Positions 6,766 through 13,097 of a stretch of 31,629 nucleotides of DNA are shown one piece after another. Numbering within the stretch: the stretch's first letter is position 1; the number at the start of each line of letters is the position of its first letter. Source of the stretch: a virus; the IMG/VR virus record IMGVR_UViG_3300028772_000005; one strand, given 5' to 3'. The translations under genes were made by a program, and so were the position numbers. Under the pieces are notes generated by a model, which did no database searches, was not told the origin of the DNA, and saw nothing but the letters and a program-made list of their open reading frames with translations.

Positions 6766-6781
6766 ATAATAATTAACCAAA

Positions 6782-7030
6782 ATGAAAAATCAAAAAAAAA
6801 TATTATCGATAGATGAAATGGAATCGATAAAAGGTATCAAGCAAGACACTTTGACCTGGTACACTTCCGTGGCAGAGGAAATCTATAAAGATTATCCTGC
6901 TATCCGACTTACCGACTCGCAGCTCGCAAAACTAATCGTCTTAAAGTACAAAGGCGTTGAAGCAACCCACGTGACCAACATACGACGCACCAGGTGCAAT
7001 GATAAGTCACGGCCTTATGTTTCTAAATAA
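6782..7030 (+). CDS. Hypothetical protein
   Basis: 82-aa ORF, co-oriented and tightly packed. No motif recognised. Confidence 0.45.
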   Translation: MKNQKKILSIDEMESIKGIKQDTLTWYTSVAEEIYKDYPAIRLTDSQLAKLIVLKYKGVEATHVTNIRRTRCNDKSRPYVSK

Positions 7031-7038
7031 TTATAGTT

Positions 7039-7449
7039 ATGTTGTGTATAAAGTGCCATCAAAATGAGTCAGAAAAGCATCGTAAAACATGCTCCCGCTG
7101 TAATTACATTCAGAAAAAGAAATCAAACCCAATCCGCATCGCCTATACTTCGCTAAAGTACCATGCAAAAGAACGCGGAAAAGAATTTTCTTTAACAATT
7201 GATCAATTCAAAGAATTTTGTGTTAAATCGAACTACTTAAATTGCAAGGGTATTGAAAAGAATAGTTTCCATATTGACAGGATAGATGAAAGCAAGGGCT
7301 ACGAAATCGGAAACATTCAGCTACTTACCAATACTGAAAATGTCAGGAAATACATTAAGTTCGTAGAAGTTAATAGACAAGGAAAGAGAATTTTTACCAC
7401 GGAAACTAATTTAAAATTGCGCCACGTCGTAAATTCAGCACCATTCTAA
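7039..7449 (+). CDS. Zn-ribbon protein with a possible HNH-like nuclease-related domain
   Basis: The N-terminal CxxC...CxxC is CIKCH...CSRCN. The segment HIDRIDESKGYEIGNIQLLTNTEN resembles xDRIDxxxGYxxGN motifs of phage HNH-annotated proteins. The assignment is weak. Confidence 0.35.
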   Translation: MLCIKCHQNESEKHRKTCSRCNYIQKKKSNPIRIAYTSLKYHAKERGKEFSLTIDQFKEFCVKSNYLNCKGIEKNSFHIDRIDESKGYEIGNIQLLTNTENVRKYIKFVEVNRQGKRIFTTETNLKLRHVVNSAPF

Positions 7450-7476
7450 CTTTAATTTGTTAAATCTTTCATGTTA

Positions 7477-7500
7477 TTGAAAATATATTTATCTTTTAAC
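7477..7500 (+). promoter_or_regulatory. Conserved 24-bp element, copy B (TTGAAAATATATTTATCTTTTAAC)
   Basis: Matches 21/24 with copy A and 21/24 with copy C. The downstream -33/-7 boxes are degenerate here (TTGC ... ACTTTTAC). Confidence 0.45.
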
Positions 7501-7577
7501 ATTAAATAATTGCATATGTCATTTTGAAACTGTACTTTTACAGGGTCAATAAGACAAACCAACTAAAACATAGTATT

Positions 7578-7766
7578 ATGAGCACATTAGTCTTTTCAAC
7601 TCAAATTAATAACATTGGTATGTTTTTAATCAATTCTAAAACATCTTTTTCTTATGATAAAGAAAAGAATGTTATTATCGTAAACCATGGTATTTCTATC
7701 GTAATGGATTTATTATTATCTTTCGGATTACGCAAAAATGATTTTTATTTAGAAAAGTTTATCTAA
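7578..7766 (+). CDS. Hypothetical protein (track ORF 7524..7766; the internal ATG at 7578 is more plausible)
   Basis: The 62-80 aa ORF follows element copy B. No motif recognised. Confidence 0.35.
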   Translation: MSTLVFSTQINNIGMFLINSKTSFSYDKEKNVIIVNHGISIVMDLLLSFGLRKNDFYLEKFI

Positions 7767-8108
7767 TTCTCAATAACTGCCCTATCGTGCTTCACGGGGA
7801 TTAAAAAAAATAAAGTTATGTACTCAATAACGGCGTCAGAAAAAAAAAGAAGCTAAACGCAACTCAAGAATTTTTTATGAATATCGTTGCAGCTATTGTA
7901 AATAACCATTATTAGATGGAGAGTATAAAATACATGATGATTGTAAAATTAGAGAACAAGAAGAATACGACTTTTACAACAAAGAGCAAGAACCATGTTA
8001 ATGTTATCGATAATCACATACTCACTATTCACAATCTTCTGTGTGATAGCCGTTAAATCAGATTCTAAAATCAATTAACAAATACTAATCATTAAAAAAT
8101 CAAATCCT

Positions 8109-8399
8109 ATGACATCAACTATCTATGTTATTGCTACCGTTTTACTTGTCGTGTGTTTTTTAATCATTGAAAAATCGTTATCCAGGGAGTCAAAAGCCCG
8201 CATTGTAAAACTTGAAAAAGAAATCAACCTGCGTGATCAAATGATTATTGCAAGGGATTTAACGATTAAAGGCTTAAAATCCGAAATTAAAAATCATGTA
8301 GATCTAAATGTACTTCTTTCAAATTCAAATGTAAATTTGAAATCCAAACTCCACCGAAATCGAAACGCAAATGGAACTTTTGTAAAATCCGAAAAGTAA
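8109..8399 (+). CDS. Membrane-anchored coiled-coil protein
   Basis: The N-terminal hydrophobic helix is IYVIATVLLVVCFLII. It is followed by a heptad-like charged segment. Confidence 0.5.
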   Translation: MTSTIYVIATVLLVVCFLIIEKSLSRESKARIVKLEKEINLRDQMIIARDLTIKGLKSEIKNHVDLNVLLSNSNVNLKSKLHRNRNANGTFVKSEK

Positions 8400-8425
8400 A
8401 TCAAACCAACAATAAACCAACAAAA

Positions 8426-9169
8426 ATGGAAACAAAAATTAAAATTAAATCAATTTTCGGATCATTACTTTTTGAATTAGAATGTGAAAATAATTCTATT
8501 AAAAATACAATAGCAGAAGCAAATAATAGAAGTGCCAACCTAAGCGGTGCCAACCTGAGCGATGCCGACCTGAGCGGTGCCGACCTGAGAAGTGCCGACC
8601 TGAGCGGTGCCGACCTGAGCGGTGCCGACCTGAGAAGTGCCAACCTGAGAAGTGCCAACCTGAGCAGTGCCGACCTGAGAAGTGCCAACCTGAGAAGTGC
8701 CAACCTGAGCGATGCCGACCTGAGCGGTGCCGACCTGAGAAGTGCCGACCTGAGCGGTGCCGACCTGAGCGGTGCCGACCTGAGAAGTGCCAACCTGAGA
8801 AGTGCCAACCTGAGAAGTGCCAACCACAATGAAAATACCGGATTTTTACTATCGCAGTGCCCAGACGGTGCATTTGTAGCGTACAAGAAAGCGCAAGGCA
8901 AGATCGTAAAAATTGAAGTTTGTGAGGATGCTAAACGAAGTTCTGCCACATCTTTAAAGTGCCGATGCTCAAAAGCGAAATGTTTAGAAATTCAAAATAT
9001 TGATGGGTTAATTTCTGAATTAAAAGAAATTAGAAGCGATAATGATTCAAAATTTATTTACAAAGTTGGAGAAACCAACGAGATATTGGATTTTGATGAA
9101 GAAAGATTTAATGAGTGTTCGACAGGTATACATTTCTTTATCCGCAGAGAAATGGCAGTAAAATATTGA
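8426..9169 (+). CDS. Pentapeptide-repeat protein with a Cys-containing C-terminal domain
   Basis: There are 19 consecutive A(N/D)L(S/R)(G/S/D) units. The non-repeat tail contains CPDGAFVAYKK, KRSSATSLKCRCSKAKCLEI and ECSTGIHFF. Confidence 0.85.
   Translation: METKIKIKSIFGSLLFELECENNSIKNTIAEANNRSANLSGANLSDADLSGADLRSADLSGADLSGADLRSANLRSANLSSADLRSANLRSANLSDADLSGADLRSADLSGADLSGADLRSANLRSANLRSANHNENTGFLLSQCPDGAFVAYKKAQGKIVKIEVCEDAKRSSATSLKCRCSKAKCLEIQNIDGLISELKEIRSDNDSKFIYKVGETNEILDFDEERFNECSTGIHFFIRREMAVKY
8534..8818 (+). repeat. In-frame 15-bp tandem repeat array (19 units) containing a perfect 116-bp duplication (8549-8664 = 8699-8814, period 150 bp)
   Basis: The units are GCC(A/G)ACCTGAG(C/A)(G/A)(G/A)T, read directly. 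The array is much more GC-rich than its flanks. Confidence 0.95.
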
Positions 9170-9195
9170 TAAATAAATAAAACAAAACAAGCAAA

Positions 9196-11163
9196 ATGAA
9201 ACTTCAAATCAACAAATTTAAACGACACGAAAATTTAACAGTGTCAATTCCTGCGAGAATATCAGGCGGTAATGAGCTTGGAAAATCAACAATACTTGAA
9301 GCAATAGGCTTCGTTCTAACAGGAAAAGATCTGTCAGGAAATGAATTTAAACAAGTATACGACAACCGTGTTGACATTCACGATGCAATTGCTGACGTGT
9401 CATATTTCGACAACTACGGAAACGAATACCATAGAATCGTACAGCCAGTATTTCAAACCGGCAGAGATGGAGTTGAAAGCATAAAGATTAAGTGTTCTAC
9501 TGTATGCAAAAAAAATTCAATTCCCTGCAATGATTTTGCAGACGAATTCAAAGACTTTCAAAAATTCGGAACGGATTATTTCTTTGCTCCTAAAAAAGAT
9601 TTAGAAATCGTCCAACGTTCAATCTTCATCGATATTTTAAAAAGTAAACTTCCGGACTACGATGTAAATTCTGCATCCCTGAAACTGAAAGAACTTAAGA
9701 AAGCTCAGAAAATTGAGGTCGACCTGGTAAAGGGCTTACAGGATGCCAACAAGAATACAAAGGATGTGCCGGTGCCCGAATTTCCAAAGGATATTTTGGC
9801 GATGAATGCTGAATATATTGCTTTATCCGCTTCGACAAATTCGGATGCCATTGCTGAAATTAACAAAAAAAATAATGAGGCGATGGGAGATTATTATACC
9901 GAAAAAGGTAAGATCTCTACCGCCATCTCAGACACTGAAATTAAAATTGGAAGGCTTAAAAGTTCAATTGAAACCGAAAAAGAGCTTTTAGAGAGCGTAA
10001 AAAAGTCGGTATTTGCTCCGAAGGTTATTGAGCCTACGGAAAGACTCGAATCCGATGTAGATGTTCTTAAATCAGCATTAGAAAAGTCAGAATATTTTGA
10101 AAGTGTTGAAAAGTATGCAGAAAAGTACTTTGGAAATAACCCGGTTCTTGTTGAAAATGCTGCAAAAATAAAGGAAATTTCGGAACGGGTGTTTATTCCA
10201 TCGGGTGAGATATCATCAAATTGCCCGCTAAATAATGAAAATTGCCCGGCTGCAAAATTGCATTCTGAAACTGCTGAAAAAATTAAATTTGAGGCAATGA
10301 ACAATGCTATAATTGCCACATCAAGGACTCAAAATCGCACTATTCTCGAAAAAGAAATGTCCGCTATCAATTCAGAATATAGCGCTGTTAAATCCGACTT
10401 GCAAGAAGCCGAAAGAAAGTTAAGCCGGGTGATTGAATCAAATAAATTGGTCGATGACGAAAATGAAACCAGGTTAAGAATAAAGAAAAAAAGAGATGCT
10501 GAGTTGATAGAAATATACAATTTGAATATCTCTCAATTTGAATCTGAACTCCATACAATAACAAAAGAATTGTGGAAAAAACAAACTGAACTCGCAAACC
10601 TTATCGACCCAACTCCCGAAAAACTCCCCGAATCAGTCGAAATTTCGGAAGAATTTAAGGATGCTCACGCAGCATACGAGCTATTGAAGATTGACATCAA
10701 CAAGGCTGTTGGCGTTAATGAGAATAATATCAAATTAATCGTTGAACGTTCATCCGAAATCAAAGAAAAACAAGCCAACCTACTTGAAATAATTGAAAAA
10801 ATAACAATCCTAACCACCGAAATATCAGATTATTTCAGTAACTTAGCAACTATTGTTAAACAGGAATTTGCAGGAGGTATTGCGTTGGATGTCGAATTGT
10901 TGGAGTACGTAATGAGTCGGGATGAATACAAAGATTGCTTTAAAATTACGGCAAACGGAAAAGTATTCCCTTATGAATGTAACGGGGCTTTGCAGAATAA
11001 CGTTAAAATGCAAGTGTTATTTAATTTGCAACGCTTGAAAGGTTATACGGGCGTTACGGTAATGGACAATTGCGAGGCAAATACGACCCAACCAATCAAT
11101 ACTTTAGGTTTGAATTGCATATTGGCTTTTGCGACTAATGATAATGAATTAACAATTAAATAA
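9196..11163 (+). CDS. SMC/Rad50/SbcC-like coiled-coil ATPase
   Basis: The N-terminal Walker A is SGGNELGKSTILEAIGFVLTGK. The central region is a long charged coiled coil. The C-terminal signature-like motif is NGALQNNVKMQV and the Walker B-like motif is VTVMDNCEA. Confidence 0.7.
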   Translation: MKLQINKFKRHENLTVSIPARISGGNELGKSTILEAIGFVLTGKDLSGNEFKQVYDNRVDIHDAIADVSYFDNYGNEYHRIVQPVFQTGRDGVESIKIKCSTVCKKNSIPCNDFADEFKDFQKFGTDYFFAPKKDLEIVQRSIFIDILKSKLPDYDVNSASLKLKELKKAQKIEVDLVKGLQDANKNTKDVPVPEFPKDILAMNAEYIALSASTNSDAIAEINKKNNEAMGDYYTEKGKISTAISDTEIKIGRLKSSIETEKELLESVKKSVFAPKVIEPTERLESDVDVLKSALEKSEYFESVEKYAEKYFGNNPVLVENAAKIKEISERVFIPSGEISSNCPLNNENCPAAKLHSETAEKIKFEAMNNAIIATSRTQNRTILEKEMSAINSEYSAVKSDLQEAERKLSRVIESNKLVDDENETRLRIKKKRDAELIEIYNLNISQFESELHTITKELWKKQTELANLIDPTPEKLPESVEISEEFKDAHAAYELLKIDINKAVGVNENNIKLIVERSSEIKEKQANLLEIIEKITILTTEISDYFSNLATIVKQEFAGGIALDVELLEYVMSRDEYKDCFKITANGKVFPYECNGALQNNVKMQVLFNLQRLKGYTGVTVMDNCEANTTQPINTLGLNCILAFATNDNELTIK

Positions 11164-11171
11164 ATTACGAA

Positions 11172-11468
11172 ATGAAAAAAATGAATTATATATTTGAAGT
11201 TGAAGTGTTGGAAGCTGGACAGAGGAAATCATATGGCGATAGTTATTATTCTTATAGCGTTTCATCAGAAAGACCAGAGAGAGAGGTAAAACTATTCTGC
11301 ATGAATGTTTTAAACAGAAGTTTTATTCCATCTGAAATGCCAAATCCATTTGCTGGCAAATTGCTTGAATTTAAAAAGATTACCGATAACAACAAGGATA
11401 AATCTTTTATGGACAAAAGAGAGGTTGAAATATACTCATACAAATTAAGTAACGAATACACAGGATAA
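11172..11468 (+). CDS. Hypothetical protein
   Basis: 98-aa ORF between the ATPase and the RecT-like gene. No motif recognised. Confidence 0.45.
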   Translation: MKKMNYIFEVEVLEAGQRKSYGDSYYSYSVSSERPEREVKLFCMNVLNRSFIPSEMPNPFAGKLLEFKKITDNNKDKSFMDKREVEIYSYKLSNEYTG

Positions 11469-11502
11469 TATTTAAGCTTAACAATCAAATAAATACAAAA
11501 CA

Positions 11503-12414
11503 ATGAGTACAGAACAATCAACAGCGCTTGAATTGCAAGACAATTTTAAACAGATGTCCGAAATGCACCTGACAATGAGAGGATCAAATAACCCTGAGTT
11601 CAAAATCCAGTTCATGAAAACTTTCTCCGACCTTATTTTCTCACAGAGTGATGAAATGCTGGAAAAGTTGAGTAAAACAAAACCCGCATCTTTGATGAAT
11701 GCAGTTTTCCGGGCAACCGAATCTGGTGCATCATTCGCTAAAAAAGAAATTTCCTTTATTCCCTTTGAAATTTTCAAGAAAGAAAAAAAGAACGGCGCAG
11801 ACGTAAAAACAGCTACCGGGGAATACGAAGCCCTCGTTATTTTCGACATCAATTTTCAGAAACAACAAATACTTAAGCTCTCAAACTGTAAACGCTTTTA
11901 CACCTGTGAAATTCACGAAGGAGTCCAGGTAATTAGCGATATGACTACCGGCAATTACTCTTTTGATGGAAAGAACGATGTATTTAAACCGACAGTTGGT
12001 TATTATGGTGTTTTCGTGACCACTGAAGACCAGATTTATGACATCTTTATGTCTTGTGCCGAAATTGTAGATCGTGCCAAATTTAGCCCTGGATTCAAGG
12101 CGGACAACTACAAAAAAACAAACAACTCAATTCACTTTGAAAAGATTGTTGTCCGTAATTTAATGAAGATTATTCCACGCCCATCGGAAGAATTAAAGTC
12201 TATCCTGGCATACGATGAAAGTTCTGAATACACACATTACGAAGACGTAACGAATGACGGCAAAGCGCTGGAGGAAGCAAAGAAAGAGCTATCTGGAAAA
12301 AAGGAACCGGTAAAGCCTGCCGAAAAATCGACTACGAAAGTTGAGAAAGAAGCGGAAGCTACTCCGACCGAGCCAGCAGAATCAAAACCATCAGAAATTC
12401 AATCATTCTTCTGA
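11503..12414 (+). CDS. recT: RecT-family single-strand annealing protein
   Basis: KPASLMNAVFRATESGASFAKKEISFIPF ... ALVIFDINFQKQQILKL ... EIHEGVQV matches the RecT core pattern. The K/E/P-rich disordered tail ends in SEIQSFF. Confidence 0.6.
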   Translation: MSTEQSTALELQDNFKQMSEMHLTMRGSNNPEFKIQFMKTFSDLIFSQSDEMLEKLSKTKPASLMNAVFRATESGASFAKKEISFIPFEIFKKEKKNGADVKTATGEYEALVIFDINFQKQQILKLSNCKRFYTCEIHEGVQVISDMTTGNYSFDGKNDVFKPTVGYYGVFVTTEDQIYDIFMSCAEIVDRAKFSPGFKADNYKKTNNSIHFEKIVVRNLMKIIPRPSEELKSILAYDESSEYTHYEDVTNDGKALEEAKKELSGKKEPVKPAEKSTTKVEKEAEATPTEPAESKPSEIQSFF

Positions 12415-13097
12415 TGAAAATCAATGTAATCGCAACAGGTAGCGCAGGGAATCTTTACGAGTTAATCGACAAGGATGGAAATTCGATGTTGATAGAAGCT
12501 GGTATGCCACGTGCTACTTATGTAAAATTTCGGGTGGGGGTAACTCCGCCTGAAATGTGCATAATTTCGCACTCTCACATGGATCATGCAAAATACAAGG
12601 GTGAATTTATGGCTGTGATGCCTGTTTATTTGGCGCAGGAAAAGAACGTTAGTGAACATTTTAAAGTTTTCGGACTCCCATTGAATCATGGAGATGTTAC
12701 CACGATGACTTTTTTAATACATTCGTTGGTAGAAAGTAAATTTCTATATTTTGCGACCGATGTACAGTTTGACAATTTAACCGAAGATGTTTGTAGTGAT
12801 TTAAAACACTTTGGAGTCGAAAACTTCCTAATCGAATGCAACTACAATGACTATCTTTTTCATCTTGCCACCGACGAACAGCGACAAGGGTGTTCAAGGC
12901 ATTTATCCGATAACGATGTTATCAATTTTATCCGAAAATCAGGAGCTAAAAACCCAAAAATTATCACAATTCACGGGTCGAATAGATTAAGCGCAGATAC
13001 TTACACAAAAAAGTATTTAAGCTCAAAGTTAATCACCTCAACTGTCAATGTGGCGGTAGGGGTCAAAGGAGGACAAAAAAATATATTTATAATTTAA
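12414..13097 (+). CDS. Metallo-beta-lactamase-fold hydrolase (putative nuclease)
   Basis: HSHMDH is the HxHxDH motif. Downstream are LNHGD, FATD and ITIHGS. The start overlaps the RecT stop (TGATG). Confidence 0.75.
   Translation: MKINVIATGSAGNLYELIDKDGNSMLIEAGMPRATYVKFRVGVTPPEMCIISHSHMDHAKYKGEFMAVMPVYLAQEKNVSEHFKVFGLPLNHGDVTTMTFLIHSLVESKFLYFATDVQFDNLTEDVCSDLKHFGVENFLIECNYNDYLFHLATDEQRQGCSRHLSDNDVINFIRKSGAKNPKIITIHGSNRLSADTYTKKYLSSKLITSTVNVAVGVKGGQKNIFII

Follow-up and report, generated by a model that had tools for sequence, protein, structure and literature searches.

A length-variable pentapeptide-repeat gene with a DUF5758 domain in the early arm of a phage genome

The IMG/VR record IMGVR_UViG_3300028772_000005, a stretch of 31,629 nucleotides analysed here as a whole (hereafter the window), carries at 8426..9169 on the plus strand a complete gene for a pentapeptide-repeat protein with a C-terminal DUF5758 domain (247 amino acids (aa) plus stop, ATG start), as established from the list of open reading frames (ORFs), Pfam and an AlphaFold2 (AF2) model. 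The combination of Pentapeptide and DUF5758 domains is already catalogued yet uncharacterised, and the gene is another member of that family. In the explanation that we favour, to which we give about an even chance, it encodes a non-structural early-arm phage protein with a role in early replication or recombination. The conserved activity would be seated in DUF5758, and the beta-helix formed by the repeats would serve as a length-tolerant rod or scaffold which drifts or diversifies in length and at its exposed positions, units being gained and lost via slippage or unequal recombination. The protein would bind or modulate a host or phage DNA-processing enzyme in the early replication/recombination programme, a role for which our confidence is only moderate, and would be neither a gyrase protector of the Qnr/MfpA type nor an Ocr-like charge mimic.

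Function is placed in DUF5758 because the domain stands alone in some genomes, because other viruses attach it to other scaffolds, because orthologue P0004 retains it with only two pentapeptides, and because its Cys, His and Arg positions are highly conserved over 272 sequences. P0004 has two full units, under one coil of helix, and is found on complete-looking 38-kb phage contigs (56 index blocks). Judging from this orthologue and from the stand-alone DUF5758 proteins, the helix would not appear to be the conserved functional part.

The repeat array and its variation in length

The start of the ORF agrees with the N-termini of homologues (MKTKIQIKS...). An N-terminal cap (aa 1-36; 8426..8533, plus strand), delimited by DSSP on the AF2 model and by orthologue alignments, is followed by the pentapeptide array (aa 37-131; 8534..8818, plus strand), which consists of 19 near-identical 15-bp units with consensus GCCRACCTGAGCGGT. 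The units are consecutive and in frame, and encode A(N/D)L(S/R)(G/S/D). A first-pass annotation, made from the sequence alone, had described 19 uninterrupted pentapeptides from near-invariant units; a listing of the units bears this out, as does Tandem Repeats Finder (8531-8825, period 15, 19.7 copies, 90% matches, score 380). The degenerate unit GCCRACCTGAGMRRT, allowing at most two mismatches, matched 19 times, always within the array and nowhere else in the window, while shuffled sequence gave 0.2 matches with a maximum of 2.

The array contains an exact internal repeat of 118 bp, with copies at 8547..8664 and 8697..8814 (both plus strand) offset by 150 bp or 10 units. The first-pass annotation had reported an exact repeat of 116 bp (8549-8664 and 8699-8814): the exactness stands, the maximal match is 118 bp. 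It had also read the repeat as an internal duplication 10 units apart; a duplication is present, but it is not a simple 10-unit tandem, since the layout is units 1-9, then ADLRS ANLRS, then units 2-9 again with the final unit altered from S to R.

Each unit holds 8-11 G+C, which a count confirms as previously noted, in an AT-rich genome; G+C content is 62.8% in the array, 35.2% in the window and 31.6% in the remaining ORF, and at third codon positions it is 0.69 in the array versus 0.22 in the rest of the gene. The mild acidity attributed to the array likewise holds, with 13 Asp and 9 Arg, a net charge of -4 and an isoelectric point (pI) of 4.42; the whole protein has a net charge of -5 and a pI of 5.28. 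Three ORFs lie antisense over the array, at 8401-8949, 8499-8873 and 8540-8827 on the minus strand (182, 124 and 95 aa). Their peptides are repeated LRSA/SGRH/QVGT, and they were rejected as genes, being by-products of a stop-free repeat. The array was also rejected as the target of a diversity-generating retroelement, given that there is no template copy and that no reverse transcriptase was found among the window ORFs scanned, which were not all of them.

The clearest sign of variation in repeat number, which the first-pass annotation had anticipated, comes from a metagenome contig (L151; Ga0302210_10015027, 2510 bp) that is identical to window positions 6771-9430 except for one single-nucleotide polymorphism and a 150-bp deletion. 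The missing segment corresponds to units 10-19 (8669..8818, plus strand), and the product is a protein of 197 aa with 9 units. The junction GAGCAGT/GCCAACCAC occurs exclusively in this contig and GAGCAGT/GCCGACC exclusively in the window, and since each allele thus has private junction sequences, neither is a simple assembly or graph collapse of the other. A search of IMG/VR with the junction pattern found no further alleles.

Orthologues in related phages, whose genomes have 31-35% G+C, contain 2, 4, 6 or 8 full units, and the unit GCCAACCTGAGCGGT is common to all orthologues of the window clade. L007 and L008 have 8 and 6 units, respectively, with C-domain DNA that is identical (351 of 351 nucleotides) and differences in cap residues 27-36. 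In comparisons with L006, L007, L008 and L002, the differences in the N-terminal 36 residues are concentrated in this same segment, where the cap helix ends and the degenerate first pentapeptide lies, and they are mostly nonsynonymous (9 of 12 between L007 and L008). A second clade, B, shows eight alleles with 4-11 units in shuffled order, whereas the N- and C-domains are identical but for one residue each. The array thus gains and loses whole units in frame. The clade B gene is located at 10001-10579 of L009, on a 423-kb contig; the stretch of L009 that was examined holds mostly small same-strand ORFs without Pfam matches, and by its appearance the contig belongs to a phage, or a phage-like element, of very large size.

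An assembly artefact, either in the 19-unit state or in the difference between 9 and 19 units, has to be considered, since the array contains a 118-bp exact repeat and the closest relatives come from short contigs (1.6-2.5 kb); exact repeats within tandem arrays are a type of structure that short-read assemblers mis-resolve. We nevertheless regard it as very unlikely, in view of the private junctions, of the variation in unit number seen in independent orthologues and in the second clade, and of a comparable indel in finished genomes. The latter concerns Salmonella phages L and ST64T, which are >99.9% identical and differ by a 15-bp (one-pentapeptide) deletion in orf232 of the early left operon (bioRxiv 10.1101/2020.10.05.325894). 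Like the window gene, orf232 is an early-operon pentapeptide gene with a clean indel of 15-bp units, albeit of one unit where the window shows ten. When DUF5758 was used as a tblastn query, no Salmonella phage was hit at E <= 1e-5, so orf232 lacks this domain.

The high G+C of the array is better explained as a founder effect, in which a single founder unit was amplified, because array G+C deviates both upward and downward across lineages. Among 91 DUF5758 ORFs, third-position G+C of the array is well above that of the rest of the gene in the window clade, L069, L018 and L094, and well below it in L009 (0.00 versus 0.27) and L085 (0.08 versus 0.32). The notion that richness in G+C is generally selected for in these arrays is therefore rejected, as some lineages have far G+C-poorer arrays, and a foreign origin of the G+C-rich array is not supported, third-position G+C elsewhere being as low as 0.00. 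A megablast of window positions 1-25000 against 50,697 phage records returned the array (8528-8825) as the sole match, to 'pentapeptide' genes of 111 Rheinheimera Barba records with about 88% identity and at 11-20 places per listed record. Horizontal transfer from these phages was rejected since the N- and C-terminal domains of Barba17S gp045 (locus L001, 2920-3597) are unrelated to those of the window protein. The nucleotide match rather looks like a codon coincidence between amplified units.

Predicted fold and the DUF5758 domain

The proposed profile hidden Markov model search of the protein places both Pfam domains well above their cut-offs: PF00805 (Pentapeptide) with E 1.7e-33 and 114.2 bits (cut-off 20.2), and PF19062 (DUF5758) at aa 144-243 with E 6.6e-31 and 106.8 bits (cut-off 26.9), covering model positions 4-104 of 105. 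The AF2 model of the full protein, built with 121 sequences, has a mean predicted local distance difference test (pLDDT) score of 91.5. It consists of a cap with a beta-hairpin (aa 2-21), a helix (aa 25-34) and the degenerate first pentapeptide ANNRS; a region at aa 41-133 with a strand at every fifth residue and pLDDT 90-96; and a short helix followed by a beta-rich C-domain (aa 150-246). A Foldseek search of the model against PDB yielded 47 matches at E <= 1e-3, all pentapeptide beta-helices, among them Np275/276, designed beta1 solenoids, Rfr23, HetL, QnrB1, MfpA, AlbG and NleL. 2j8i_B aligned with a root-mean-square deviation of 0.4 A over 82 columns, and a PDB sequence search was concordant with the fold matches.

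One coil takes four pentapeptides (PMC8145042), and 19-21 pentapeptides therefore make about five coils. By the criterion of the same paper, a pentapeptide-repeat protein has eight or more A(D/N)LXX-type pentapeptides in a row; the window protein has 19. It is thus predicted, on the strength of the model, to form a capped right-handed quadrilateral beta-helix, and the helix of about five coils expected by the first-pass annotation is what the AF2 model and the PDB fold matches predict.

DUF5758 (aa 144-243; 8855..9154, plus strand) is a beta-rich domain that is delimited by Pfam, by conservation over the 272 sequences and by a separate model of the C-domain. This model (aa 132-247) has pLDDT 83.9 and a predicted template modelling (pTM) score of 0.78. 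It matched no PDB fold (best E 1.3, TM <= 0.24), and the DUF5758 profile found nothing better than E 2 among PDB sequences. Against predicted viral structures (BFVD) there were 32 matches at E <= 1e-3 with TMq 0.6-0.76, to uncharacterised proteins from phages and to many from giant viruses (Klosneuvirus, Harvfovirus, Hyperionvirus, mimivirus, pithovirus); in these the fold is fused with HEAT, MORN or pentapeptide repeats or with RING modules. That the C-terminal 115 aa or so form a separate domain, as had been suspected, is thereby substantiated. Its suspected recurrence on uncharacterised phage and bacterial pentapeptide proteins is substantiated too: we obtained 725 close homologues, nearly all with PF19062 with or without PF00805, and the DUF5758 profile identified 4686 clusters (50% identity) at E <= 1e-3, 2613 of them at E <= 1e-10. 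DUF5758 is almost always C-terminal in these clusters, and proteins of about 110 aa without a partner domain occur.

Over the 272 aligned sequences R171, R180 and G234 are invariant (100%), and C145 (99%), C179 (98%), C181 (90%), C231 (96%), H236 (99%), K154 and Y212 (both 99%) are highly conserved. The conserved Cys and His together with the invariant Arg suggest a putative metal site or an active or ligand-binding site. Annotation resources added little on function. All strong PHROGs matches are to families without an assigned function, NCBIfam returned pentapeptide families only and all below threshold, no cofactor motif was recognised in Pfam or NCBIfam, and PADLOC, whose library is without anti-defence genes, gave no match. 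A literature search on phage pentapeptide proteins found incidental mentions only.

A weak match of the window C-domain to DUF7666 (22.8 bits, below the Pfam cut-off of 27) is of interest with respect to Barba17S gp043 (L001, 1233-2210), which has an N-terminal DUF7666 (E 5e-21) followed by NTGNx Pentapeptide_2 repeats. Both proteins join a small G(I/L)HF-motif domain to a solenoid of five-residue repeats, but in gp043 the order is reversed, with the head N-terminal, and the repeats are of the NTGNx type. From sequence resemblance, DUF5758 and DUF7666 may be distant relatives, both small, both with the G(I/L)HF motif and both combined with a solenoid of five-residue units.

The closest counterparts with the same two domains in the same order are gp59 of mycobacteriophage 244, gp54 of Traaww1 (both cluster E, Kostyavirus) and B5F53_11565 of Blautia sp. 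An249. DUF5758 scores 101.9 bits in 244 gp59 and 106.8 bits in the window. The array of the window is near-perfect, recently amplified and length-polymorphic, whereas the mycobacteriophage arrays are degenerate and the two proteins examined, 244 gp59 and Traaww1 gp54, are both 281 aa. The window also differs from its Pentapeptide + DUF5758 relatives in the N-terminal cap.

Genomic setting and distribution

The window is a phage sequence, with a large terminase subunit at 635-1822 and tail-like genes, all on the minus strand. Relatives of the terminase are found in Flavobacterium, Bacteroides, Phocaeicola and Parabacteroides phages at <= 31% identity, and this resemblance makes a host among the Bacteroidota probable. 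The plus-strand arm encodes an N6/N4 methylase, a DUF5906 primase-like protein, an HNH endonuclease, the pentapeptide protein, an ATPase, RecT and a hydrolase. The gap that separates the leftward terminase genes from the rightward early arm contains an AT-rich tandem repeat (2397-2432; period 13, 3 copies), which could be a regulatory or origin-like region.

The first-pass annotation had placed the gene in the early arm directly upstream of the recombination module, and the products of that module can now be named. An SbcC/RecF-like P-loop ATPase of 655 aa (9196..11163, plus strand; phrog_77 E 3.1e-7; TIGR00611 RecF N-terminus E 2.9e-6, below cut-off) has known-family matches that are limited to its N-terminal P-loop. 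It is followed by a RecT-family single-strand annealing protein (11503..12414, plus strand; PF03837 E 1.1e-8; phrog_148) and by a metal-dependent hydrolase (12414..13097, plus strand; phrog_392 E 5.3e-26), which completes the module; the interval 9196-13097 also includes an ORF of 98 aa. The ATPase gene begins 26 bp 3' of the pentapeptide gene on the same strand, and a terminator scan found no terminator-like site between them. An imperfect 21-bp direct repeat (9183-9223, 1.9 copies, CAAAACAAGCAAAATGAAACTT) overlaps the ATPase start codon.

Related 38-kb phage contigs (L002-L005) show syntenic gene placement. The DUF5758 and ATPase genes of the closest complete relatives stand 1.7 kb apart, with a methylase and small ORFs in between. 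L002 has at 8633-9217, a few genes upstream of its DUF5758 gene, an extra gene for a YdcK-type beta-solenoid (GDARVFGNARVF..., PF18836 E 1.4e-14), for which the scans made of the window found no counterpart.

In bacterial genomes DUF5758 is found mainly in Clostridia/Lachnospiraceae and Bacteroidales and in few others. At 22 bacterial loci the neighbours are genes of prophage early regions, i.e. repressors, DnaC-like loaders, methylases and SbcC-like ATPases, and prophages of Firmicutes share the placement in the early replication/recombination arm. A prophage of Peptococcus simiae (L024, 3513-8542) has the order SbcC-like ATPase, pentapeptide-repeat protein with DUF5758, small pentapeptide-repeat protein, RecT and phrog_392 hydrolase, which is the module of the window in a different gene order. 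The architecture is carried by 152 cluster-E mycobacteriophages. Its gene occupies third place in the early operons of 244 and Traaww1, adjacent to the repressor, and in Traaww1 an exonuclease and an ERF protein are encoded 2.3 kb downstream; as in the window, this is an early-region gene upstream of recombination genes. SbcC-like ATPases of about 650-710 aa are located within 0-3.3 kb in four sequence-unrelated lineages, namely the window clade, Peptococcus L024, Gemella L046 and a Lachnospiraceae group, and on the same strand except in L060.

Weighing the function

That the beta-helix is a DNA mimic which neutralises a host topoisomerase, restriction enzyme or defence, in the manner of Qnr, MfpA and AlbG or of Ocr and ArdA, was the tentative proposal of the first-pass annotation, and appears quite unlikely to us. 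The window protein is predicted to have the right-handed quadrilateral beta-helix found in QnrB1, MfpA and AlbG, its array is mildly acidic and the gene lies in the early arm. The charge is, however, far from that of a dedicated mimic and is not conserved: the N-terminal region of 262 members has a median of -2, with 69% within +/-4. The dense, conserved negative charge of Ocr and ArdA is not seen in these charge counts, the surface itself being unmapped. Length is no better preserved. Qnr and MfpA need a dimer of defined length, while orthologues of the window protein range from 2 to 19 units, 9 and 19 units occur within one phage, orthologues of 2-4 units are too short for a helix of DNA length and those with two form none at all. 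Scores are far under the NCBIfam cut-offs, with 39.7 bits for Qnr (NF033086; cut-off 240), 40.9 for MfpA (NF000349; cut-off 360) and 25-44 bits for QnrA/B/S and other Qnr models (cut-offs 425-500), and the absence of a PADLOC match points the same way within the bounds of its library. Qnr proteins are generally characterised by loops that interrupt the helix and by a C-terminal dimerisation helix (see also PMC3089455); the window array is unbroken, without such loops, and a 105-aa beta-rich domain, DUF5758, stands in place of the dimerisation helix. The low net charge, the lack of conservation in charge and length and the sub-cut-off Qnr and MfpA scores leave DNA mimicry or anti-defence unsupported. 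This evidence removes the specific support for mimicry and is compatible with binding of a DNA enzyme.

The protein could instead be an accessory of the recombination module, either a Gam-like protector that would block a host end-processing nuclease (RecBCD/AddAB/SbcCD) or a partner or regulator of the phage SbcC-like ATPase, which is possible but on balance unlikely. Its location 26 bp upstream of the ATPase gene without an intervening terminator, the ATPases near DUF5758 genes in four unrelated lineages, the shared module of the Peptococcus prophage and the position of the Traaww1 gene 2.3 kb upstream of exonuclease and ERF genes all speak for such a link. But just 9-10 or so of 50 lineages have such an ATPase nearby, none of the neighbour families is universal, RecT is not enriched, and the closest complete relatives have their 1.7-kb separation. 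The control, in which none of 57 other phage pentapeptide genes had such an ATPase, is biased because the ATPase families were seeded from DUF5758 neighbours, so the association is a lead, not a finding. The resemblance to lambda Gam-like inhibitors, whose genes likewise adjoin an annealing-protein/nuclease module, is positional only; no Gam or nuclease inhibitor was returned by PDB sequence and fold searches, including those with the C-domain structure. A somewhat less probable idea would make DUF5758 a virus-specific effector domain, with a fold so far absent from PDB and a conserved Cys/His site, on interchangeable solenoid scaffolds in phages and giant viruses alike, and would have the rapid change of the rod's length and surface in this phage lineage reflect an ongoing conflict with a host factor; the protein might then be an inhibitor or decoy of a host end-processing nuclease or of a defence sensor on replicating or recombining phage DNA. 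NleL and SopA, whose catalytic-Cys ligase domain comes after a pentapeptide beta-helix, offer another model, with DUF5758 as a Cys/His-dependent enzyme and the helix as its substrate-binding arm. Here the conservation of R171, R180, C179, C231, H236, K154 and Y212, the presence of NleL among the helix matches, the same domain logic of an N-terminal beta-helix and a distinct C-terminal functional domain, and the occurrence of the DUF5758 fold on diverse repeat scaffolds and in giant-virus RING proteins are suggestive. We consider it improbable, since the domain is small (about 105 aa), lacks a PDB enzyme-fold match and a cofactor motif, and has a CxxxxH spacing that fits a metal knuckle equally well; moreover NleL and SopA are secreted effectors, whereas the window protein is a cytoplasmic phage protein with a C-domain that is not HECT-like. 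A virion or tail-fibre component, finally, is hardly credible: to a single weak, repeat-level match to a tail-fibre PHROG (phrog_28766, E 0.0045) are opposed the location among DNA-metabolism genes on the strand opposite the structural module, the mycobacteriophage copies that adjoin the repressor where the early operon begins, and strong PHROG matches that are all of unknown function.

Several results weigh against the explanation that we favour, of a conserved DUF5758 activity on a length-tolerant rod in early replication or recombination. By our own count polymorphic array sites are roughly neutral in nonsynonymous/synonymous proportions, which gives no sign of diversifying selection in the array, and the contigs are probably short-read assemblies, so that absolute unit numbers are provisional. 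BLAST clustering of 645 neighbour ORFs from 50 lineages found no universal partner gene, and a conserved partner was accordingly rejected. RecT is near 10 of 90 DUF5758 genes versus 10 of 57 other phage pentapeptide genes, and the link with recombination may be mere residence in the early region. C145 and C181 are substituted in mycobacteriophage members, such that only C179, C231 and H236 are retained among the Cys and His of all members examined; a four-ligand Zn site (C145, C179/C181, C231, H236) is thus not universal, which weakens that candidate. A search of one literature library found no paper that mentions DUF5758, PF19062 or DUF7666.

To a specialist, an early-operon phage pentapeptide gene with 15-bp indels is not very surprising; worth recording are the 10-unit indel within a population and the orphan viral fold. 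The lineage is a clean natural case of in-frame variation in beta-helix length, with 9 or 19 units in otherwise identical DNA and 2-8 in orthologues, and since these states coexist among near relatives, helix length would seem uncritical for function. Such variation argues against the automatic labelling of phage pentapeptide proteins as DNA mimics. DUF5758, which has thousands of clusters and no structural relative in PDB, which at the loci examined is confined to viruses and regions of prophage, and which bacterial and eukaryotic viruses combine with four or more kinds of scaffold or module, is a good target for structural and functional work, for which the cluster-E mycobacteriophages are cultured, genetically tractable relatives.

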